Source: an uncultured Anaeromyxobacteraceae bacterium
GTDB taxonomy: Bacteria > Myxococcota_A > UBA9042 > DTJE01
Length of the DNA stretch: 64,000 nt
Reading direction: 5' to 3'
Assembly: GCA_964573455.1 (NCBI GenBank)
Contig: CAZNJW010000001.1
Coordinates: forward strand, 13,096-77,095
The position numbers and the translations under genes are program-made. How positions within the stretch are numbered: the first letter of the stretch is position 1; every line of letters starts with the position of its first letter. The notes under the pieces are model-generated. The model made no database searches. It was not told where the DNA came from and worked only from the letters and a program-made list of their open reading frames with translations. Positions 19,776-33,651 of this stretch are shown here, piece by piece.

Positions 19776-19903
19776 GAGGTTCCGTCCAGGACGGAATATT
19801 TGACCGCCGTTGTTGACTGAGGCAGTTGTTGTGCTATCTTTTCGCGACGTTCGTGGCTGGCGTAATCCGACCGCGTTTCTTGCTTGAACCCCGGAGGAGT
19901 CCG

Positions 19904-20911
19904 ATGTCCCTGCGTACCATTTCAGTTCCGCTCGTTGCCGCGCTGTTCGTCCTGACCGCCGTGTCGGGCTGTTCCGGTGACAAGGTCAATAAGGCGCGCG
20001 CCATCATCGAAACCCAACCGGATGTGGCTCTCGCTCTTTTGAAAGAGGCCGCCGCCGAAACCGGGGAGACATTCGACAATCTTATTTACACGGGACTCAC
20101 CCTCGAAAAGCTCGGGCGCGACAGCGAGGCAATCGAGGCCTACGAGAAGGCTCTCGCGAGTGAAAGCGCCGCCGGACGCCCCGAGCCGGTATCCGAAAGA
20201 CTCCTGGTTCTGTACGAGAAGGCACACAGTCTGGCGTCCGGGGATGCGGCGAAGCGGGCCGTGGCCAGGAAGGCCGCGGCGCTGGAAAAGTCCCTGAAGG
20301 TTGCAAGGCCTTGGGCTTCCTCCTTCATCATTGACAGACTGGCCGCAGACATGGCGGTTGCCGGCGACGCCGGCGACGAGGCCGCTGTTCGGAAGCTGGC
20401 CGCCGAGGGAATGGAACTCGCGGTTACGACCGAAGTGAAGAACATGTTCGGAGAGAAGGCGACTGCCGCGCTGCGCCAGGCCTTCGTCGTTCGCTCGGAA
20501 AAGGCATTCATGGAAAAGCTCGCCGGACCTCTGGCGGATCAGGGGGTCTTCGTTGCTGATGGCGCCAGGATCGTGATTGAAAACGAGTTCGTGATTCCGC
20601 CAGCCAAGACCGGCCCGGATTTTGATCCCGAGAACCCGCTGTTTTTCGCGAACGTGCGCAAGAGCGCGTGCGTCCCTCTCCACACGTCGATAACGAAGAT
20701 AGCCGGACAGCTCGCGCCGGTCCTCGGTCTGAAGGAAATCGACGCAGCCGGACTCGATGCCGTTTTCGAGAGCCTCTACCGTACCGGAACAAAGGCCGGT
20801 TTCAAGGCTTTCGGGGGGGACAAGCGCCCGCCGAACGGACAGACATACCTCTGCCGGATGGATGTCGGGCTCAGGGACTTCCTGGCCGCCGTGTTCGTGT
20901 TCGCCCAGTAG
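19904..20911 (+). CDS. Lipoprotein, hypothetical (TPR-like helical N-terminus)
   Basis: MSLRTISVPLVAALFVLTAVSGCSG lipobox. Ala-rich helical content. Confidence 0.45.
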   Translation: MSLRTISVPLVAALFVLTAVSGCSGDKVNKARAIIETQPDVALALLKEAAAETGETFDNLIYTGLTLEKLGRDSEAIEAYEKALASESAAGRPEPVSERLLVLYEKAHSLASGDAAKRAVARKAAALEKSLKVARPWASSFIIDRLAADMAVAGDAGDEAAVRKLAAEGMELAVTTEVKNMFGEKATAALRQAFVVRSEKAFMEKLAGPLADQGVFVADGARIVIENEFVIPPAKTGPDFDPENPLFFANVRKSACVPLHTSITKIAGQLAPVLGLKEIDAAGLDAVFESLYRTGTKAGFKAFGGDKRPPNGQTYLCRMDVGLRDFLAAVFVFAQ

Positions 20912-20917
20912 CGAACG

Positions 20918-22813
20918 TTGCAGGGGCCATCAATGACTCACCCAATACGTAAGGCGGACATTCTGGTCGGCCTGTTGCTGGCGGCGTGCTACTTCGTCAT
21001 GCTGATGTCTACTCTCGACATCGGATTCCCCCGTGACGAGGGGTTCTACTTCAAGGCCGGAGAAGAGTATTCGTACTGGTACGACGACCTCGTGACCAGT
21101 CCGTCCACCGCATTTTCCAAGAAATCCATCAACAAGCATTTCGCCTACAATCCGGAACACCCGGCGCTCCCGAAGATGATGTTCGGGCTTTCCTGGCGGC
21201 TCTTCGGAAAGATGCACGACCCGGTCAAGGAACCGTGGTCGAAGGTCTGGTACCACAAGACCAAGCCGCCGAAACCAATCTTCGGCATCATGTCCGAATC
21301 GACAGCGATGCGCCTGCCGGCGCTCATTCTGAACTCGCTGCTGGTGATGTTCATATTCCTGTTCGGCGTGGAATTCTTCAGCAGACGAGTCGGGTTCGTG
21401 GCCGCCGCCGCATGGATGTTCCTGCCCCATACCTTCTGGCACTCCCACCTGGCGTGCTTCGACATGCCGGTCACCGCGATGTGGTTCCTGGTGGCATGGC
21501 TCTTCCTGAAGGCCACCCCGCCGCTCGAAGAACGCAGGAAGAACCGGGGGCGCACGTGGAAATTCGCGATCGCTGCCGGCGTGGCCTGGGGCCTTTCCAT
21601 GTCGACCAAGCACAATGCCTGGTTTATTCCCGCCGTTTTCGTCATCTGGTACCTCATCGCCCGCTGGGACGAAGTCCTGCCGCGCGATGCGGATGGTCGC
21701 AGAAGGCCGGCCTTCGGCAATATTCCTCCGGCATTCTGGATGATGCTCCTGCTTGGACCACTGGTGTTCTACCTCACGTGGCCCAAGCTGTGGTTCGCCC
21801 CGATCGATCACCTGTCCTTCTATATCGCCCGGCATGCAAAACATGAGTTCTACTGGGCCTACTTCTTCGGTACGCTCCACACGAAGCCGCCGTTCCCGGT
21901 TTCATTTCCGTTCGTCATGTCGGCGATGACCTTGCCAGGGCCGATCGTGCTTTTGTCACTGGCCGGTCTGGGCACGGCGTTCTCGGCATGGATCAAGAGA
22001 CTCCAAGGCAGGGAGTGGAAGATCGCGGTTCCGATTCCCGCAGCCTATCGTGACACCATCCTGTTCGTATTTCTGAATGCGCTCATACCGTTCGCAATCA
22101 TCGCGGCTCCGAACACGCCGATCTTCGGCGGGACGAAGCACTGGCTTCCGGGCGTGGCGTTCCTGATGATTTTCGTCGGAATCGGTTTCGAGCTTGTCGT
22201 CGCGGCCATCGACGGACTTCGCGAGAGATTCAGGCTCCGCTGGGGCAGATCGGCACGGGCCGCCCTCGTGGCGCTTTGTCTTGCGGTCGTGCTGACCCCG
22301 GCGGTGTTCGACACCTTCCACGGCCACACCAACGGCAGCACCTACTACAATGCCTTCTTCGGCGGGTTCGGCGCCATGGGAAGACACGGAATGCAGCGCG
22401 AATTCTGGGGAAACACCGCCTTCTCAGCCCTGCCCTGGCTGAACAGGAATGCACCGAAAAACGCTCAGGTACACTTCCACGACACGGCCTGGGATTCTGT
22501 AAGGATGTACTGGCGAGACGGACTTCTGCGGCGGGACATCAAGCCGCGCTGGGATTATCAGAAGGCCGATTACTTCCTGTTCCACTGGCACAAGGAGTTC
22601 CTCGATCGCGAAGAAACGGGACGCACGGCCATCGGAAGCGACATTCCGGCTTTCGTTGTCGAACAGGACGGAGTGCCGCTGCTGAACGTCTACGAGCGTC
22701 CTCCGCGAAAACCGGCACCGGTCAAGCTTCCTGTCGTCAGACCTGATCGTCCACCCAGGCAGCCGCCTCCCGGAGACCGCGCCAAAGACGCGTCCGGAGG
22801 TAACAACCGATGA
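20918..22813 (+). CDS. Glycosyltransferase family 39 (ArnT/PMT-like) integral membrane protein
   Basis: About 12 TM helices. N-terminal loop motif (DEGFY). Pro-rich C-terminus. Size and topology of a PMT_2/ArnT protein. Confidence 0.6.
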   Translation: MQGPSMTHPIRKADILVGLLLAACYFVMLMSTLDIGFPRDEGFYFKAGEEYSYWYDDLVTSPSTAFSKKSINKHFAYNPEHPALPKMMFGLSWRLFGKMHDPVKEPWSKVWYHKTKPPKPIFGIMSESTAMRLPALILNSLLVMFIFLFGVEFFSRRVGFVAAAAWMFLPHTFWHSHLACFDMPVTAMWFLVAWLFLKATPPLEERRKNRGRTWKFAIAAGVAWGLSMSTKHNAWFIPAVFVIWYLIARWDEVLPRDADGRRRPAFGNIPPAFWMMLLLGPLVFYLTWPKLWFAPIDHLSFYIARHAKHEFYWAYFFGTLHTKPPFPVSFPFVMSAMTLPGPIVLLSLAGLGTAFSAWIKRLQGREWKIAVPIPAAYRDTILFVFLNALIPFAIIAAPNTPIFGGTKHWLPGVAFLMIFVGIGFELVVAAIDGLRERFRLRWGRSARAALVALCLAVVLTPAVFDTFHGHTNGSTYYNAFFGGFGAMGRHGMQREFWGNTAFSALPWLNRNAPKNAQVHFHDTAWDSVRMYWRDGLLRRDIKPRWDYQKADYFLFHWHKEFLDREETGRTAIGSDIPAFVVEQDGVPLLNVYERPPRKPAPVKLPVVRPDRPPRQPPPGDRAKDASGGNNR

Positions 22814-23715
22814 GAAAGACTTCCTGGCTCCTCATATCCATCGGTCTTTTGATTCCGATAGCCTCGCTCGTTTACTTCGGCATGGACCTTTTCTATGTGC
22901 AACGCGCTCCGGACACCACGGACTGGCAGGAAGCGGCACGGGTGGTCCATGAAGGGTGGAAGGAAGGCGATCTTGTCGTGTTCTCCCCCCAGTGGGCTCA
23001 GGGCGCTTCACCATACCTGAAGGGTCTCAAGGTCGACACGGCCGAAAATCCTGACTGGTACGAAGCGTCAAAAGCCAGTCGGATATGGGTCATCGGTTCG
23101 ATGGACGGGTTCGATCCCGAACCGCCCGATGGATGGAAGACATTGTCCGAGACAGCAGGCAGGAAGGTGTCGGTCGAGCTGTGGCAACCACCATCGGGCA
23201 GGGAACTGACATACAGTCTCCTGGACAATATCGATGACGCCGTGGTTTCGCGAATCCATCCGAAACGACGCGAAATCTGCTCGAATCTGAAGGACTCGAG
23301 GTGGTATTGCGGAAAGGTTCACTCGTGGCTCTTCGTAGGCCATTCCAGAAAAGACATCGCCGGCCGGGTAAGGGACGTGATCTGGGCTCACGCCATCGAT
23401 CGCACGGTGGTTGAGGCGGTCTGGCCGAAGGTGCCGGGCGATGGAACCCTCACGGTACGCTGGGGTCTGACGCAACGCGCAGCCGAGGCCGCCGAGGGCA
23501 AGCCGACGAATTTCAAGGTCTTCGTGAAAGGCAAAGTGGTTCTTGAAGACACGCTGGACGTTGACGAACACACGTGGCACACGATTGATATACCTATCAA
23601 GGGTTCTGAACCTTCCGAGGTCAAGTTCCAGATTTCCTCGCCAGACGCGCAATCCAGGCAGGTCTGCTTCACCGCGGATCTCTGGCGCTCGAAAGCCGGC
23701 ACAGACTTTTTATGA
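22810..23715 (+). CDS. Membrane-anchored hypothetical protein coupled to the GT39 gene
   Basis: N-terminal TM helix. ATGA start/stop overlap with the GT39 gene. Confidence 0.4.
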   Translation: MRKTSWLLISIGLLIPIASLVYFGMDLFYVQRAPDTTDWQEAARVVHEGWKEGDLVVFSPQWAQGASPYLKGLKVDTAENPDWYEASKASRIWVIGSMDGFDPEPPDGWKTLSETAGRKVSVELWQPPSGRELTYSLLDNIDDAVVSRIHPKRREICSNLKDSRWYCGKVHSWLFVGHSRKDIAGRVRDVIWAHAIDRTVVEAVWPKVPGDGTLTVRWGLTQRAAEAAEGKPTNFKVFVKGKVVLEDTLDVDEHTWHTIDIPIKGSEPSEVKFQISSPDAQSRQVCFTADLWRSKAGTDFL

Positions 23716-23786
23716 TTCCCGGCGTCGATATCAGCTAGAATCACTGACAGAGCCGTCGGAACACATCAACCGGATGGTGCGCTGAC

Positions 23787-24644
23787 ATGACATACAGAAT
23801 CTTTCTTACGTCGCTGGTCCTCATGTCCGTGCTGACGGTTCTGCCGCCACGCGTCGGAACCGCACGGGACTACACACCTGACACATCTTCATTCTTCAAC
23901 GTCTGCAATGGTGGCGGCGAGTGCACGCCGGGCGTGAACAAGGCGGGATTCTCGGACTACATCACTCAGATGAGTGAAGCACTTGGCCCCGCTTTCATGG
24001 GCCCCGCCAACACACTCGGCTTCAAGGGATTCGAGCTGACGCTTAACACCAGCTTCACCCCCGTTCAAGCCAACAGTGAAGTCTGGACCGGGTACGGCGG
24101 AACCCAGCCCGGCGTGGCCCGAAACCCGGGAACGCTGATGTACGCAAACCAGCTGCGTTTCCGCAAGGGGCTGCCATACAGCATCCAGATCGGCGCCTCG
24201 GTGACGCACCTTTACGAAAGCTCGCTGTGGGGAATCGGACTGGATCTGTCGTGGAGTTTCGTGGAAGGGTTCAAACGGGCGCCGGACGTCGGTCTGGTGG
24301 TTTCGTTCGGAACCGTACTCGGAATGACCGACATACAGACCTTCCAGTTGAACGCGGCCCTTATAGTGTCCAAGTCATTCTCTGTCGCAGGTCTCTTCTC
24401 TTTCGAGCCTTACGTCGCCTATAACATGATGTTCGTGATGGCCGGCACCCACGTCACGTCGCAGTGGTCCCCGGACGGCTACGGCGGACAGTTCGCGATC
24501 GACCCGCAATACATCCTGCGGCACCGCGTCGAAATCGGCATGAACGCCTTGATCGAGAACTTCCTGATCGGCGGTGGCATGACGGTCGATGTGCAATCGG
24601 CCAAGGTCATGGGCGCGATCAAGGTCGGCGTCAGGTTCTGGTGA
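23787..24644 (+). CDS. Secreted putative outer-membrane protein
   Basis: Signal peptide, C-terminal ...KVGVRFW aromatic terminus. Confidence 0.4.
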   Translation: MTYRIFLTSLVLMSVLTVLPPRVGTARDYTPDTSSFFNVCNGGGECTPGVNKAGFSDYITQMSEALGPAFMGPANTLGFKGFELTLNTSFTPVQANSEVWTGYGGTQPGVARNPGTLMYANQLRFRKGLPYSIQIGASVTHLYESSLWGIGLDLSWSFVEGFKRAPDVGLVVSFGTVLGMTDIQTFQLNAALIVSKSFSVAGLFSFEPYVAYNMMFVMAGTHVTSQWSPDGYGGQFAIDPQYILRHRVEIGMNALIENFLIGGGMTVDVQSAKVMGAIKVGVRFW

Positions 24645-24654
24645 CCGATGTGAC

Positions 24655-25962
24655 TCACGGCTCCGGGCGCACGCCCGATTCCCCGTACCTGACCCTGTAC
24701 GACCTCGACAAACCTATGCACGAATCGGAGTGACGACATCCGGAGCAAGCCGGGACGAGTTCATGTCCAAAAAGGTCTGCGCGGCGAAGATCGGCTCTTG
24801 CGTGACTTCTTAAAGCGGAAGGAACCGCGCAAATCGGAAAGTCGGCTATCGACAGGCCTGCTCCGGCGGCAGCCTGTTCCAGCCTGGGACCCGCCGCCTC
24901 AAATGCCGATCTGACCTCCCCGATTTCAGGGGTCACATCGCCAAGAATTTCATCATGCCGGGCGCAATCCGAAATGAGAGATCGAATGGTCACATCAAAA
25001 TCGAAATGAAGCAGCATGTCCAGCACCGAAAACAGTTCAGGCACTGCCCTCCTGGTCATAATGAACTGACCATTCACCCGAAGCGGCAATCTGGAGATAT
25101 TCCGCAAGGCCCGAACCATGCGAACAAAGGCACCCGGCGTTCCCGCGACCGCATCATGAACTTCGGCCGAGGCGCCAAAAACGGACGTCGATATCTTTTG
25201 AACGCCAGGCAGACCCGCGACGGCATCCGCGACCGATGCGCTGGCGAGCCTGCTGGGAGGAATCAAAAGGTGAATCGGACAGCCGCTGGCATCCGAGATT
25301 ACCTGCAATATCGCCCCCAGATGCCTGTGGCCCAAGAGGTCATCCGCATCGAGGCCGAAAGTCGACATCTGACCATGAGCTCTGGCCGGACGAACAATCC
25401 TGTCGGCAAGGCGACAAACCAGATCGAGGTCCCGATCCTGATCAACTGCGTTCCAGATCTGTTTATTAACCGGACAGAAAGCGCAATTCTGGACGCAGCT
25501 CGAAGACAGATTAAGATGAAAAGAGAGGTCGTCACCGCACCCAACCGATGCCAGCATCTCGGATGTGATGTCACCCCCCTGGGAAGCTCTGGACAACGAC
25601 CAGCGCCTTACTGGAGGTTTCGTGCCCGAAAAGCCTGATTCAAACCAGTCAGCCCCGGCGAGCCTCGAGTGGATCGTCTTTTCCAGAGAGTCACAAGCTG
25701 CCACGAACCCCTTGTTTTTCTTCAAAAAGCTACGGATCGGCCAGATTTCAACAAACGGCGCATCATCGCGACATCCATGACCACAGAAGGCGTGCGCCGC
25801 CAGCCCGATCGGGAACATGTGTTCTTCCGATATGACCCGGCCGAACACCTCAATCCCGCAATCCTGCCTCAGGTAAGATTCGGCAATGTACACGCCGGGA
25901 ACAGACAGAAACTGAAGCAGCTCACGCGGAGAAGGAAGCTTGTTCATCGGAGCCTCCGTCAA
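24655..25962 (-). CDS. Radical SAM enzyme of unknown function (435 aa)
   Basis: CVQNCAFCPV (CxxxCxxC) at about residue 175. ~150-aa unique N-terminal domain. C-terminal Cys cluster (CSGCRHSDSC), possibly an auxiliary Fe-S cluster. Last gene of the BMC-P operon. Confidence 0.6.
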   Translation of the reverse strand: MTEAPMNKLPSPRELLQFLSVPGVYIAESYLRQDCGIEVFGRVISEEHMFPIGLAAHAFCGHGCRDDAPFVEIWPIRSFLKKNKGFVAACDSLEKTIHSRLAGADWFESGFSGTKPPVRRWSLSRASQGGDITSEMLASVGCGDDLSFHLNLSSSCVQNCAFCPVNKQIWNAVDQDRDLDLVCRLADRIVRPARAHGQMSTFGLDADDLLGHRHLGAILQVISDASGCPIHLLIPPSRLASASVADAVAGLPGVQKISTSVFGASAEVHDAVAGTPGAFVRMVRALRNISRLPLRVNGQFIMTRRAVPELFSVLDMLLHFDFDVTIRSLISDCARHDEILGDVTPEIGEVRSAFEAAGPRLEQAAAGAGLSIADFPICAVPSALRSHARADLRRADLFGHELVPACSGCRHSDSCIGLSRSYRVRYGESGVRPEP

Positions 25963-25969
25963 GCCCGGG

Positions 25970-27385
25970 TCAGTTTCTGAGGGAGTTCATCGGGGCCGGG
26001 ATACGGCCACCTCGCGCGATGAAGGTGCTTACGTCAAATTTCTTCGTGTCCATGACGATCAGTTCGCCAAGCAACCCGCCCAGATCAACTGTGTCCCCGG
26101 GCTTCGAACCCGGAATCGGGATCAGACGGCAGGCCGTAGTCTTGTGATTGATGACACCAATCGCCAGTTCATCGGCAATTATCGCCGCAATGGTCGAAGG
26201 AGGCGTGTCGCCGGGAAGCGCGACCATGTCCATGCCGACTGAACAGATCGCCGTCATGGCCTCGAGTTTGTCCAGCGTCATGGCGCCAAGCCGGGTCGCG
26301 TCGACCATGCCGGCGTCCTCGCTGATTGGAATGAAGGCGCCTGAAAGCCCGCCAACCGACGACGATGCCATGACGCCTCCCTTCTTGACTGCCTCGGTCA
26401 GAAGATAAAGCGCGGCCGTAGTGCCGTGGGCACCTACACGCTCGATTCCCATCGCTTCTATGATCCTGCCGACCGAATCGCCTTCCGCCGGCGTCGGCGC
26501 CAGCGACAGGTCCAGAACGCCAAAGCGAACCGGCGGACCAAGTCTGGCCACGACTTCGCGACCAATCAGTTCACCGGCACGCGTGATCTTGAAGGCGGTC
26601 CGCTTGATAACCTCGGACAGAGACTGACAGTCCATCAAGCCGGGTTCAAGACGCTTCTGGCGTTCGATGGCCGCAAGCACGACGCCCGGGCCCGATACGC
26701 CGACATTGATGACGACATCGGGTTCACCCACGCCATGCATCGCGCCGGCGATGAAAGGATTATCCTCGGGCGCGTTGGCGAAGACCACCAGTCTGGCACA
26801 TCCGGCGCCGTGCTTTGTCTTGGCGGCCGTCTCGGCCATCACTTCGCCCATCATCGCCGTCGCTTCAAGGTTGATTCCGGTCCTTGAAGACGCCAGATTG
26901 ACCGAGCAGCAAACCCTGGTAGTCGAAGCCAGCACGTCGGGCAAGCTACGCATCAGCATGGCTGAACCTGACGTGGCCCCTTTCTGGACCAGTGCCGAAA
27001 AGCCCGCGATGTAGTCGATCCTGCACTCGACCGCCGCCTTTTCAAGAGCGGCTGCAGCCGCGAGATAGGATTCACGCGGAGCTCCCTCGAGAACCAGCGC
27101 CATCGGGGTGACAGACACGCGCTTGTTCACGATCGGTATGCCGTACATGTTCTCGACCTCGGCGGCCGCGTCGACCAGCCCTCCCGCATGCGAGACGACC
27201 ATGTCGTATATGTACTTGGAGACCGTCTTCGGATCCTTGCCCGGACACCCAAGCATGCAGATGCCCATCGTGACCGTGCGGATATCAAGATGCTCCGCCT
27301 CGACCATTCTTATGGTTTCAGAAATTTCTTCTGGTCGGTAAATCAAGGGTTCCTCCGATCCACCGTAACGGACCGGCCACCGCAT
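25970..27385 (-). CDS. DUF711/UPF0210 family protein
   Basis: Near full-length similarity to UPF0210: [96 protein letters not shown]. Confidence 0.75.
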
Positions 27386-27401: not shown

Positions 27402-28028
27402 TCAGATCCTGTGCATCGCCTTCAGGATGGCCTCGTGCATCACCATCATTTCCGCTCCGACCGCACGTCCTGCCACCTCAACCTTGTTCTTGAACTCCTT
27501 GAACGTCATTCCGCCCTTGAGCGTGTCCAGATTAACCACGAAGATCATCGAGAAGAAGTTCGCAACGATGGTCTGGCTTATATCCTGGATGTCGGTGCCA
27601 CAGTCGGAGATCGCCGACGTCAGCGCTGCGGCGACCCCGGGCTGGTTCCGACCGGTTGCGACCACAATGGCGCGATTCGGCTCACCGGCCTGATGTGCCG
27701 CAATCCTTGCAGCGGCACCATCCTCGGCGAGTGGCGAATACGACGGAATGAAGGAGCCCCCGCGGTCGCCCTGCGAAAGCGCCCGCACAACCTCTTCGGC
27801 AATGACCTTGCGGAGCCGATCATCCGACGGCCCGCGGCTGCCACTGACAGGATCACGCGGGATCGACTCGGCCGATGGAACCGAACCGCTGGCATACACC
27901 AGACGGATCCCCTGTCTGGTCGCGTATTCCCGCGCCAGCGGCGTCACGATCATTCCGGAGTCCACAGCCAGAACGCCCTTCGAAGCGAGCGCATCGACAT
28001 CCTTCTCGGTGATAATCTTCCTGACCAC
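27402..28028 (-). CDS. ACT-domain protein (UPF0237-like) with EutQ-N-terminal-like motif and EP-like amphipathic helix
   Basis: C-terminal 90 aa match UPF0237 (DISQTIV..FSMIFVV...[11 protein letters not shown]). N-terminal [38 protein letters not shown] resembles the EutQ N-terminal motif. The linker contains [17 protein letters not shown]. Confidence 0.6.
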
Positions 28029-28037
28029 ATCAACCTC

Positions 28038-28397
28038 TTATTCTGTCTGACCGGCTATCGCCGATTCATCAACCCTGAAGCGATCGACAATGGCTACGAC
28101 CGACGCGTCGACCGGAAAATGGGGAGCCTCGCCGACTGCAAGGCCCGGTTCAAGCCCGACGCGCCCCGCATGTCCGTAAGCGATAACGACGTCCTCGCCG
28201 GGACCGGCGCCCAGCAGATCAGCCACCACGACGCCATCGGTCAATCCCTGGGGCGGTACGCCGGCGTCCGCGGTCATTCCGTCGGAAGCGCGCAGGTCGT
28301 CAAGGTTGTATGGACGGACCAGCAACAACCGCAGACCTTCCAGTCCCTTCCATTTAACCGAGGACCAGACGCAACCAACGACCCTTGCCATGAACAT
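28038..28397 (-). CDS. Bacterial microcompartment vertex protein (BMC-P, EutN/CcmL/PduN family)
   Basis: ARVVGCVWSSVKWKGLEGLRLLLV, VVVADLLGAGPGEDVVIAYGHAGR and PVDASVVAIVD align to conserved EutN blocks. ~115 aa. Confidence 0.75.
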   Translation of the reverse strand: MFMARVVGCVWSSVKWKGLEGLRLLLVRPYNLDDLRASDGMTADAGVPPQGLTDGVVVADLLGAGPGEDVVIAYGHAGRVGLEPGLAVGEAPHFPVDASVVAIVDRFRVDESAIAGQTE

Positions 28398-30321: not shown

Positions 30322-31086
30322 TCAATAGTATTTTTCCCCGGAATCGATGTCCACGACTATCGCGGAAACGGTCATCTCCGGAACCATCTGAAACGTCTCC
30401 GAAACGGCGACGCCGATCCGGGAAGCCCCGAGCATGGCGCAGATCTTCTCCTGATTGGACAGATCCGGACAGCATCTGTATCCAGGCGAGAAGCGCACGC
30501 ACGGACGAAACCCCTCCTGTCCAGGCGTCAGTCCGCACATGGCCGACGCGACCCTGAGATGAACCTCACCGGCAAACGCCTCCGCCATGGCCGCCGCCAT
30601 CCCGTGAAAAAGATGATAATCCTCGAAACGTCCCTGCTCTCTCAGCTCGGCCTCATGCCTGGCCACGCCATGGCCAAGTGTCGAGACGAACCATCCGGCG
30701 CGACCGGCCGGCGCCATGGTTCCGTCCTCCGGCACGGGAGGAAAGAGATCCGTAAGAGAGTGGCCCTGGTGGTTACGCGCGAAATGAATCAACACGGCAT
30801 CATCGCGGGAATCATTTTCGTCCGGGATCAGAAGGTCGTTATCGATGGAGAATGCGGGGGCGACCATAACCACCGCGGCCGGCTCGAAAATGCCCTCCTG
30901 GCACGCGGAAACCAGCCTGTTCATGAACATCGGTTCCAGTTCGACCTTGATCCGCCTGTTCCATTCGTCCTGATTCACATCGCGGCGCCTGAAACGCCAG
31001 TGCTGCAGAAACAAGGACTTGCGATCGACAAGCCGACCGAGCGCCAGCGGATCGATGTCCGATATCACCATGGCACGCATAGGCAC
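30322..31086 (-). CDS. Methionine synthase reactivation (AdoMet-binding activation) domain, stand-alone ORF
   Basis: RFSPGYRCCPDLSNQEKICAMLG...ETFQMVPEMTVSAIVVDIDSGEKYY matches the MetH activation-domain C-terminus. Only 3 nt downstream of the MetH core. Confidence 0.7.
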   Translation of the reverse strand: MPMRAMVISDIDPLALGRLVDRKSLFLQHWRFRRRDVNQDEWNRRIKVELEPMFMNRLVSACQEGIFEPAAVVMVAPAFSIDNDLLIPDENDSRDDAVLIHFARNHQGHSLTDLFPPVPEDGTMAPAGRAGWFVSTLGHGVARHEAELREQGRFEDYHLFHGMAAAMAEAFAGEVHLRVASAMCGLTPGQEGFRPCVRFSPGYRCCPDLSNQEKICAMLGASRIGVAVSETFQMVPEMTVSAIVVDIDSGEKYY

Positions 31087-31089
31087 ACC

Positions 31090-33651
31090 TCACGATAACG
31101 GACGTTGCCCGTTCACCACCTGATTGAGTGCCCTGAGCCCCTCGAAAGCATCCCTGCAGTAGAAAACCTGACCACTGTAGGACGTGCGAAGCTCACGTTC
31201 GACAAACCCACCGTCGAGAGCCGCGCCTCCAACCAGAACCGGCAGCCTTACTCCAGCGCGCTCCATGACCTGCAGGTTGTCCTTCATCGCCATCGTGGAC
31301 TTCACCAGCAGCCCGGACATCCCGATGGCATCTGCATTCTCGCGCCGCGCCGCCGCCATGATCTCCTCGACCGTCCGTTTGACCCCCAGATTGACCACGC
31401 GAAACCCGTTGTTCGAGACGATTATGTCGACCAGGTTCTTACCAATGTCGTGAACGTCCCCGACAACCGTGGCTAAGACCAGCGTGCCTCTTGGCTCGGT
31501 CCCTGCCGCTGGAAGACGTGGCCGAAGCATGTCGACCGCCGTCTTCATGACCTCGGCGGAGCGCAGGACGAACGGAAGCTGCATCCGCCCGCTGCCGAAC
31601 ATCTCGCCGACCTCACGCATAGCGTCCAGGAGCACGTCGTTGATGATCTGAATGGCATCCATTTCGCCAAGCAGGTTATCAAGTGCCGTATCAAGCCCGA
31701 TCCGATCACCGCGAATCACGGCCCTGCGGCACCGCTGAACGGGGCTGAGGCTGGAAACGTCATCCGCGTTGACGTCCGCGGATGCTCCCACCTCAAACAT
31801 CTCAATGAAGGAGTGAAGGGGATCCCTTCCGCCAGATGAATCATTGTTGACAAGCGCTTCGGCCGCCACGCGCAGTGTCTCCGGGATCGAATCCACGGGC
31901 ATGATGCGACTGGCATTAACGATGGCGGCGCCAAGACCGGCCTTCATGCAGTGATCGAGCATCACGCTGTTGAGAACCCGCCTCGCCCCGGGGTTCAATC
32001 CGTAGGAACAGTTGCTGACGCCAAGGCTGATCCTTACGCCCGGATGCCGGTCACGAATGATTCGAATCGCGTTGATGGTCTCCAGCGCCGAAGTCCTGAG
32101 CGCGGCATCACCGGACGCCATCGTGAATGTCAACGGGTCCACGAAGATGTCGGCGGGGTCGAAACCATGCCGATTCACGAGCAGCCCAATCAGTCGCGAT
32201 GCCACCTCGACCTTGCGTGCCGCTGTCATCGCCATCCCGACCTCGTCGATCGTGAGCGCCACGACCGCGGCGCCATGCCTGCGGGCAATCCCGGCGATCG
32301 CGTCAAGCCTGCTTCCTCCGTCCTCGAGATTCACCGAATTCACGACCGCCCTTCCCGGGCATCTCATCAGCGCGGCTTCGATCGCGGCCGGTTCAGTTGA
32401 GTCCACCATCACGGCCGCGTCCAGGAACCTGGTCGCGACCGGAACGAACCTGACGACATCGGCCGGTTCGTCGCGGCCGGCCACGGCCAGACAGATATCA
32501 AGGACGTGCGCGCCCTCGTCGACCTGTTCACGACCAACCTGAAGCATGGCTTCCACATTCCCGTCGACCAGGTGGTTTCGGAAGGCCCTGCTGCCGTTGG
32601 CGTTCGTTCGTTCGCCAATGATGAGTGGCCCGGGAGTCTGCTCCATGGCAACTGCGGAAAACAACGACGAAAGCATGTCGAGCCTGTTCGGCCGGTTTCG
32701 CGACGGCTCAAGATCGGCCACGGCTTCGGCAAGCGCCCTGATGTGGTCTGGCGATGTGCCGCAGCACCCACCCACAAAAGAAACCCCCAGTTCCGTCACG
32801 AACGACCTTACCTGTGCCGCGAACCCGGCCGGGGTCAACCTGTAGACCAGCCGACCTCCGTCATTCTCCGGAAGGCCGGCGTTCGGAAGGGCCGCCAGAG
32901 GCAGCGGGGATTCGCCGGCAAGCCGCTTCAGCACACCGTACATCGCATCAGGACCGGTCGAACAGTTCAACCCGAATACCGCCACGCCAGGCATTGATGA
33001 CAGTGTAGCGAGCGCCGCTATCACGTCGGTGCCCAGCAGCATCCTCCCGCCACAGTCGACCGTGACCTGCGCGAAGATCGGAACCTCGCGGCCGCTGTCA
33101 TCCATTGCACGGCGAAGACCAAGGACAGCGAGACGGGCCTGAAGCGGATCCTGGCACGTCTCCACCTGGAACATGTCGACACCTCCAGCCAGCAGGGCGG
33201 CGCCCTGCTCATGGTAGGCATCAAGCATCGCTTCGGGCTCGACCTGCCCCAGCGAGGGGAGCCTGGAACCAGGTCCGATCGACCCGGAAACCCAACGCGG
33301 GCGTCCCGGCGCCGATGCGCGATCGGCCGCCTTGCGGGCAATCTCGGCGGCGGCCAGGGACAGTTCGGCCGCGCGGTCGGCAATGCCGTACTCATCAAGC
33401 ACGATCCGGTTGGCACCAAAGGAATTGGTCTCGATGATGTCCGCACCGGCATCCAGGAAGGTACGGTGAATCCCGGCGATCATGTCCGGCCTGGTCAGGC
33501 ACAGCATCTCGTTAAGTCCGTCGACCGGGCCGAAATCAGCGGCCGTGGGAGCCGCCTTCTGGATCTCGGTGCCCATCGCACCGTCGATCACGACGATTCG
33601 CTCACGGGCCGCGGCAAGGATGACACTTGGCAACCGCATCTGGCACCTCAC
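31090..33651 (-). CDS. metH: Cobalamin-dependent methionine synthase core (Hcy-binding, pterin-binding, B12-binding domains), lacking the activation domain
   Basis: 853 aa. Homocysteine S-methyltransferase N-terminus. B12-binding GDVHDIGKNLV (DxHxxG). Confidence 0.85.
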   Translation of the reverse strand: MRCQMRLPSVILAAARERIVVIDGAMGTEIQKAAPTAADFGPVDGLNEMLCLTRPDMIAGIHRTFLDAGADIIETNSFGANRIVLDEYGIADRAAELSLAAAEIARKAADRASAPGRPRWVSGSIGPGSRLPSLGQVEPEAMLDAYHEQGAALLAGGVDMFQVETCQDPLQARLAVLGLRRAMDDSGREVPIFAQVTVDCGGRMLLGTDVIAALATLSSMPGVAVFGLNCSTGPDAMYGVLKRLAGESPLPLAALPNAGLPENDGGRLVYRLTPAGFAAQVRSFVTELGVSFVGGCCGTSPDHIRALAEAVADLEPSRNRPNRLDMLSSLFSAVAMEQTPGPLIIGERTNANGSRAFRNHLVDGNVEAMLQVGREQVDEGAHVLDICLAVAGRDEPADVVRFVPVATRFLDAAVMVDSTEPAAIEAALMRCPGRAVVNSVNLEDGGSRLDAIAGIARRHGAAVVALTIDEVGMAMTAARKVEVASRLIGLLVNRHGFDPADIFVDPLTFTMASGDAALRTSALETINAIRIIRDRHPGVRISLGVSNCSYGLNPGARRVLNSVMLDHCMKAGLGAAIVNASRIMPVDSIPETLRVAAEALVNNDSSGGRDPLHSFIEMFEVGASADVNADDVSSLSPVQRCRRAVIRGDRIGLDTALDNLLGEMDAIQIINDVLLDAMREVGEMFGSGRMQLPFVLRSAEVMKTAVDMLRPRLPAAGTEPRGTLVLATVVGDVHDIGKNLVDIIVSNNGFRVVNLGVKRTVEEIMAAARRENADAIGMSGLLVKSTMAMKDNLQVMERAGVRLPVLVGGAALDGGFVERELRTSYSGQVFYCRDAFEGLRALNQVVNGQRPLS

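Follow-up and report, generated by a model that had tools for sequence, protein, structure and literature searches.

The cargo of bacterial microcompartments (BMCs) usually handles toxic or volatile intermediates. The subject of the present analysis is a minus-strand open reading frame (ORF) in a 64,000-nucleotide (nt) stretch of DNA, hereafter the window, from an uncultured Anaeromyxobacteraceae bacterium (GenBank assembly GCA_964573455.1, contig CAZNJW010000001.1, positions 13,096 to 77,095 of the forward strand). The ORF encodes an ACT protein of the UPF0237 type with a long N-terminal extension resembling that of EutQ, here called module-ACT, and stands between a gene for a BMC-P shell protein, designated E4, and a gene for a DUF711/UPF0210 protein. 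The reading that we favour is a shell- or pentamer-docked complex of the ACT protein and DUF711, and its locus is probably a BMC locus of the satellite type in uncultured Myxococcota.

The closest described counterpart of the extension is found in EutQ of Salmonella, whose residues 1-99 form four helices, H1 to H4. H1/H2 (residues 9-41) were shown by experiment to bind the shell, with a docking site proposed at the EutM/EutL interface, and are followed by a flexible stretch at residues 42-61; H3/H4 (residues 62-99) have an affinity (Kd about 6 uM) for the encapsulation peptides of EutC and EutE, and the C-terminal cupin domain dimerises (PMC12487888). Removal of EutQ residues 1-100 abolishes the binding to EutM (PMC4827028). 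The role of this N-terminal module in EutQ is, in other words, already known (PMC12487888).

On the side of the shell genes, a main BMC locus as defined by Sutter et al. requires both BMC-P and BMC-H (PF00936) genes, one or more of each. The HO, ACI and FRAG types are marked by a BMC-P triplet, shell genes of the FRAG types are scattered over up to six sites, and the presence of several BMC-P genes per BMC type hints at extra roles for BMC-P proteins (PMC8217296). Complete BMC operons occur in some uncultured Myxococcota (PMC12747264).

The two other constituents of the locus are homologous to the widespread UPF0237/UPF0210 pair, for which structures have been solved (1ZPV; 2HA9, the UPF0210 protein SP0239) and which has no known function. 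1ZPV is SP0238, the product of the gene adjoining SP0239, and the canonical pair is not known to stand beside a shell-protein gene. No function was found in papers on DUF711, UPF0210 and UPF0237, as far as their titles and abstracts, for the most part, tell, and a literature search returned no paper combining DUF711 with microcompartments. Likewise, pfam05167 (DUF711) was not found in the catalog text or text supplements of Sutter et al. 2021 (PMC8217296).

The N-terminal module and its homologues

The product of the ORF, translated from a GTG start codon at 28026-28028, consists of an extension and a C-terminal ACT domain. The latter is matched by Pfam ACT_6 (E 9.5e-9, 35.5 bits vs a cutoff of 23) and by NCBIfam PRK00194 (E 6.5e-18, model positions 2-90 of 90, 64.9 bits vs a cutoff of 74), while PDB 1ZPV covers residues 119-208 only (E 4.3e-10). 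Canonical UPF0237 proteins are about 90 amino acids (aa) long (90 positions in the PRK00194 model and 91 aa in 1ZPV) and have no counterpart of the first ~117 residues, in agreement with what a preliminary description of this DNA had stated. In AlphaFold2 models computed with the family alignment, the mean predicted local distance difference test score (pLDDT) is 82 for the full-length protein and 86 for the N-domain alone. Residues 3-45 are predicted as a compact beta-alpha-beta-beta-alpha-beta unit (pLDDT 85-92), followed by a disordered segment at 46-68 (55-59), a helix at 69-85 (about 75), a stretch of low confidence at about 86-104 with a minimum below 50 at 88-90, a second helix at 105-115 (about 73), and the ACT domain at 119-208 (about 94).

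The preliminary description had also proposed a motif like that of the EutQ N-terminus at residues 4-42 and had called for its alignment with EutQ. The motif (KIITEKDV...TRQGI) is present at residues 4-41, and the alignment is significant. BLASTP against EutQ of E. coli K-12 aligns residues 2-94 with EutQ 1-90 (26% identity, E 2e-6), and hhalign of the family profile of the N-terminal extension against EutQ gives a probability of 93% (E 3.5e-7, residues 3-60 on 1-61). Against curated models, the matches are local and sub-threshold and fall on BMC-associated families: residues 3-43 match two families at their C-terminal ends, TIGR02536 eut_hyp (E 6.8e-5) and PduM (TIGR04493, E 0.004; Pfam PDU_like, E 0.0035), and residues 3-79 match model positions 2-79 of the EutQ model PRK15457 (E 0.003, 17 bits vs a cutoff of 193). 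The cupin of EutQ (PF06249 or Cupin) had no match in the module-ACT protein in the Pfam and NCBIfam scans, and the module itself is absent as a stand-alone family from the Pfam copy searched.

The reach of the module became apparent with a profile of 50 columns, built from the N-domains of this ACT family only. In an exhaustive search of 1.84 billion representative proteins, it matched 589 proteins at a library-wide E<=1e-3, E. coli EutQ being recovered at 20 bits. A domain scan took in 144 of the 150 listed matches (589 in total) and identified 62 eut_hyp, 20 EutQ, 19 UPF0237-type ACT, 13 RpiB, 11 PduM and five Flavoprotein carriers among the 144, along with one each of PduL/PTAC, BMC-type EutD and class II aldolase. 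The first 50 residues of EutT are a further occurrence. Among the carriers the module is N-terminal, C-terminal, or present in two or three copies. One RpiB fusion (P0283; L and P numbers denote loci and proteins of this analysis) is flanked by genes for BMC-T, BMC-H, three BMC-P, DeoC, TIM and aldehyde dehydrogenase, and its locus is a canonical sugar-phosphate-type BMC locus. Architectures other than ACT fusions surfaced only in the exhaustive representative search; the profile of the whole N-terminal extension had 192 matches, and the 120 listed were proteins with ACT Pfam domains or short fragments, mostly of about 205 aa. The ACT fusions form a distinct architecture of the module, seen here in uncultured Myxococcota, including Polyangia.

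The sequence comparisons show that the N-terminal motif is genuinely homologous to the module of these proteins, with a similarity far beyond chance. Because it is shared across the EutQ, PduM, eut_hyp, EutT, RpiB, PduL and aldolase architectures, it is best described, on the same comparisons, as a mobile element of about 45 residues of BMC-associated proteins, and it could serve as a marker for new BMC cargo or BMC-associated proteins. In the RpiB carriers the module sometimes occurs in two copies, and many short carriers have no other domain. Neither the window nor the loci yielded a module protein other than the ACT protein, the RpiB fusion and E. coli EutQ.

The E4-ACT-DUF711 cassette

The module-ACT gene is part of a tight minus-strand operon, in which the gene for E4, a divergent BMC-P paralog, is followed after a 9-nt gap by module-ACT, after a further 16 nt by DUF711, and after another 7 nt by a radical-SAM-like gene (Table 1). 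E4 matches Pfam PF03319 at 62.2 bits vs a cutoff of 25, and its closest solved relative is the shell pentamer 5V74 of Haliangium ochraceum (E 2e-5), relative to which E4 carries two inserted loops. The GAGG of the module-ACT gene abuts the TAA stop codon of the BMC-P gene and lies 5 nt before the GTG, which suggests that the two genes are tightly coupled in translation. The DUF711 protein is matched by the NCBIfam DUF711 model at 653.8 bits vs a cutoff of 440, with residues 17-471 aligned to model positions 3-452, and this alignment leaves no encapsulation-peptide-like terminal extension; if the enzyme is recruited to a shell, it would therefore have to ride on the ACT protein.

Full-length homologues of the module-ACT protein number 67, and the named sources are metagenome-assembled genomes of uncultured Myxococcota, 'Anaeromyxobacteraceae', Polyangia and 'Deltaproteobacteria'. 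Assemblies with the cassette include JAGOFO01, CAYYCO01, CAZFVA01, JAKPTZ01, GCA_964424165.1, GCA_043815665.1 and GCA_036561465.1, and it is also found on the 4.33-Mb contig ERZ25039538:contig_11713. A tblastn screen covered 41 related loci together with the window. At every module-ACT locus having upstream DNA, namely the window and 37 loci, an E4-type BMC-P gene precedes module-ACT and DUF711 follows it; ACT identity among these ranges over about 30-99%, and the flanks vary. E4 is more conserved across the loci than the ACT extension, and the ACT protein is the sole module carrier of each related locus. More divergent loci (L012-L014, L038-L041 and L043) have four tandem BMC-P genes, namely a triplet, E1-E3, plus E4, while in the clade of the window E4 alone is present at the locus and the triplet is missing. 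Two loci, L006 and L007, contain an ACT gene that lacks the module and has no BMC-P neighbour.

Several other genes accompany the cassette. The radical-SAM-like gene is conserved 3' of DUF711 in no clade other than that of the window (35-89% identity). DUF711 is classified with ribonucleotide reductases and glycyl-radical enzymes in a ten-stranded barrel superfamily (PMC4390871), and it is because of this shared superfamily with glycyl-radical enzymes that the radical-SAM-like neighbour deserves mention. Upstream of the operon are a gene for a TPR/DUF4388 protein and a split methionine synthase, in which a protein of 853 aa has the Hcy-methyltransferase, pterin and B12 domains while the activation domain is a protein of its own, of 254 aa. 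A plus-strand block of the window encodes a PMT-family glycosyltransferase and two proteins without a Pfam match (285 and 301 aa); this block is syntenic with the cassette even in distant relatives (L001, L004, L009-L011, L016-L020 and L030), most of these loci having a TPR protein as well, and in L004 it lies on the same strand directly 3' of DUF711.

The loci with four BMC-P genes have companions of their own. Conserved upstream in L012-L014 and L043 are a protein of about 340 aa with an N-terminal hydrophobic stretch and a Cys, possibly a lipoprotein, and a Lys-rich protein of about 117 aa. DUF711 is fused to a C-terminal cupin in L043, from a Polyangia-type genome, and a separate cupin gene comes after DUF711 in L014.

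Table 1. Positions of the features in the window and in related loci
Feature	Position	Strand	Remarks
Module-ACT, whole ORF	27402..28028	-	208 aa; EutQ-N-like extension (residues 1-117) and UPF0237-type ACT domain
Ribosome-binding site GAGG	28034..28037	-	read from sequence; 5 nt 5' of the GTG start
N-terminal module, residues 3-45	27894..28022	-	homologous to EutQ H1/H2, PduM C-terminus and eut_hyp repeats
S/P/G-rich linker, residues 46-68	27825..27893	-	predicted disordered, strongly conserved
Amphipathic helix, residues 69-85	27774..27824	-	encapsulation-peptide-like pattern; position matches EutQ H3
Second spacer	27684..27773	-	IPSYSPLA motif (residues 93-100) and short helix 105-115 (H4 position)
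IPSYSPLA motif	27729-27752	-	within the second spacer
ACT domain, UPF0237 type, residues 119-208	27405..27674	-	ACT_6, PRK00194, 1ZPV
E4, divergent BMC-P (EutN/CcmL) paralog	28038..28397	-	119 aa; two loop insertions; PF03319
DUF711/UPF0210 protein	25970..27385	-	471 aa; PF05167 E 4.8e-167; PDB 2HA9 E 2e-146
Radical-SAM-like gene	24655..25962	-	435 aa; weak HxsC/SPASM-type matches
Glycosyltransferase block	19826-24644	+	PMT family
Split methionine synthase	30322-33651	-	two proteins
Four tandem BMC-P genes	L012 9138-10324; L013 9077-10330; L014 9132-10302; L043 6666-7925		
DUF711-cupin fusion	L043 10635-12536		633 aa
ACT proteins without module	L006 585-1055; L007 64-534		about 150 aa
RpiB module fusion	L042 8001-9218		

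Proposed shell docking and its alternatives

Taken as a whole, the layout is best explained by an ACT protein that has acquired an N-terminal adaptor arm like EutQ 1-99, in which the module is followed by a linker, conserved for all its flexibility, and by one or two amphipathic helices. From the tight operon, module-ACT would be co-translated with a dedicated E4 upstream and its partner enzyme DUF711 downstream; the universal pairing of the two genes implies an ACT-DUF711 partnership. The module would probably dock the ACT protein on the shell, either on hexamer or trimer facets, as in EutQ, or on the co-encoded E4 pentamer, and DUF711, which has no targeting sequence, would be carried along by binding the ACT domain. 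E4 as the docking partner is suggested by the strict gene coupling, and has no precedent. The helix region could form bundles with encapsulation peptides on other cargo, in the manner of EutQ H3/H4, or aid self-association. On this reading a complete shell would exist in the genome.

For the parts of the arm that follow the module, the preliminary description had a Ser/Pro/Gly linker carrying a classic amphipathic, encapsulation-peptide-like helix. The linker and the helix are where it had put them: the linker runs over residues 46-69 and the quoted 17-residue string is residues 70-86, and the structure prediction, which could have made the whole region disordered, has disorder at 46-68 but a helix at 69-85. 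The linker, with the consensus GGSVPSAEDIPRDPxTGxKG, is among the best-conserved stretches of the family despite its predicted disorder, and the same combination of predicted disorder and high conservation is found in the IPSYSPLA segment. This combination suggests that both are putative short linear binding motifs. The helix is conserved across the ACT family, and its hydrophobic moment of 0.37 is in the range of the PduP, PduD, EutC and EutE peptides (0.23-0.53). Its helicity and its moment thus bear the earlier proposal out; its identity as an encapsulation peptide does not follow, given its internal position, its conserved linker and the fact that 28% of shuffles of its own composition reach the same moment. 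The hydrophobic moment was accordingly discarded as statistical proof of an encapsulation peptide, the helix being no better than shuffles.

By analogy, the helix is better read as a positional counterpart of EutQ H3, a binder of encapsulation peptides, than as a targeting peptide, and it may pair with other amphipathic helices. Homology to EutQ H3/H4 was considered and rejected, hhalign giving a probability of 0.4% for the family profile against EutQ 45-115; the positional parallel alone stands. In L006 and L007, the ACT proteins of about 150 aa have one or two N-terminal amphipathic helices and no module, and are paired with DUF711 (P0066).

A number of findings weigh against docking of the complex on a BMC shell. 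Neither the 64-kb window nor the 41 related loci, searched over about 10 kb, yielded a BMC-H or BMC-T gene, the tblastn queries for BMC-H being PduA, CcmK2 and an H. ochraceum-type sequence. The precedent itself is an imperfect guide, as EutQ is reported to use the module to bind EutM/EutL, that is, a hexamer and a trimer, and not a pentamer, so that by this analogy the pairing with BMC-P is left unexplained. E4 is separated from the ACT gene by one or two genes for membrane proteins, some of them Cys-rich and zinc-ribbon-like, in the Polyangia-type loci L012, L014 and L043. As for the arm, the amphipathicity of the helix is not exceptional by the shuffling result above, its similarity to H3/H4 is undetectable by hhalign, and a similar helix occurs in shorter ACT relatives that have no module (P0065-P0067, 150-156 aa), those of the P0066 loci, L006 and L007, having no BMC-P neighbour either.

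Because no BMC-H was found in the locus, it is not a main BMC locus: of the two kinds of gene in the definition of Sutter et al., the window locus has the BMC-P and lacks the BMC-H, and is at best of the satellite type. The preliminary description had concluded that the ACT protein, and probably its DUF711 partner, are BMC cargo or shell-docked. Two independent lines of evidence, the homologous module and the invariable E4 and DUF711 neighbours, support a link to shell components, whereas the part of the claim that implies cargo of a complete BMC is not borne out without BMC-H. Docking to a shell protein, perhaps the pentamer paralog, is hence safer to propose than 'cargo of a complete BMC'.

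The lack of BMC-H in the window and the 41 related loci would also suit a scaffold that is independent of BMCs, in which E4 would be a free pentameric platform for module-ACT that organises or regulates DUF711, no compartment being involved. Such a platform would be in keeping with the character of E4, which is distinct, highly conserved, endowed with two insertions and strictly coupled to the ACT gene; with the window's clade, which keeps E4 alone without the triplet; and with the extra roles that BMC-P multiplicity hints at (Sutter et al., PMC8217296). We nonetheless regard it as unlikely, since the divergent loci retain E4 beside the BMC-P triplet, the hallmark of fragmented types with distant BMC-H, and since all other architectures of the module are BMC-associated proteins. 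More doubtful still is that module-ACT is an adaptor and not cargo, namely an EutQ analogue serving as a dimeric linker, whose module binds the shell, whose helices recruit cargo with encapsulation peptides and whose ACT domain dimerises or senses a ligand, with DUF711 being incidental. The arm is indeed collinear with EutQ 1-99, EutQ dimerises via its C-terminal domain (PMC12487888), and the helix is conserved in the family. Against these stand the universal pairing of ACT and DUF711, retained at every locus examined, the lack of any encoded encapsulation-peptide cargo nearby, and the absence of H3/H4 homology.

The persistence of the E4 adjacency over about 30-99% identity with changing flanks, and the library-wide significance of the matches to BMC families, leave very little probability to the view that the module is a PSBD (E3_binding)-like or generic interaction motif unrelated to BMCs and that the EutN adjacency is coincidental synteny. 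What speaks for it is a weak Pfam E3_binding match at residues 27-48 (E 0.045), PSBD chains among the PDB matches (E about 0.7), and E3_binding matches in two of the 144 scanned module proteins (best E 1.8e-5). The similarity is limited to the half with the TPLAR helix and is insignificant for the module-ACT protein, and PSBD was rejected as the primary explanation in favour of the significant BMC-module matches.

A bolder form of the favoured docking reading may also be put forward, albeit tentatively and with more doubt than belief. DUF711/UPF0210 together with ACT might be the signature cargo of an unrecognised, fragmented Myxococcota BMC type, attached via the fourth BMC-P, with the module binding the vertex pentamer and not the facets or, at the extreme, a free pentamer scaffold without a BMC-H shell. 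If true, either version would be the first functional handle on the widespread UPF0237/UPF0210 pair.

Comparison with known systems

What appears to be new is the fusion of the module to a UPF0237 ACT domain, the invariant E4-ACT-DUF711 cassette and, hence, the link between DUF711/UPF0210 and microcompartments. For a pair of proteins with solved structures and no known function, a physical tie to shell proteins would be a concrete and testable clue, of interest both for the biology of microcompartments and for annotating a widespread family whose function is unknown. The fourth, specialised BMC-P paralog bears in addition on the reason for the multiple pentamer genes of many BMC types.

The ACT domain and DUF711 are clear homologues of the canonical pair (1ZPV and 2HA9), with adjacent genes as in that pair, and the canonical UPF0237 protein differs from module-ACT by having no extension. 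With PduM, eut_hyp, the EutT N-terminus and the RpiB, PduL and aldolase fusions from SPU-type loci and other BMC loci, the ACT family shares the module in one or more copies; unlike in module-ACT, the module is in some of these proteins at the C-terminus or repeated, and their loci contain BMC-H genes. Satellite and fragmented BMC loci, such as those of HO and FRAG, resemble the present one in having shell genes away from BMC-H, and the divergent relatives share the BMC-P triplet, whereas a fourth, insertion-bearing BMC-P paralog tied to ACT and DUF711 sets these loci apart.

The encapsulation peptides of PduP, PduD, EutC and EutE have a similar helix of about 17 residues, with a comparable hydrophobic spacing, moment and adjoining flexible linker. 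They are, however, terminal, and their linkers are poorly conserved, while the helix of module-ACT lies inside the protein (residues 69-85 of 208) behind a conserved linker; it is also found in relatives that lack both the module and an adjoining BMC-P gene.

The nearest parallel is EutQ 1-99, in which a module of about 45 residues (K-[LI]-IT-x2-D[IV] ... [IV]TP-x-ARE) likewise leads through a flexible S/P-rich region to helices, and in both proteins the module arm is attached to a small domain, that of EutQ, a cupin, being one that dimerises. The differences lie in the C-terminal domain, which is ACT and not cupin (PF06249 is absent), in the linker, which is strongly conserved in module-ACT, in the region of H3/H4, where no sequence similarity is detectable, and in the genomic neighbours, which are a BMC-P paralog and DUF711 in place of the eut operon.

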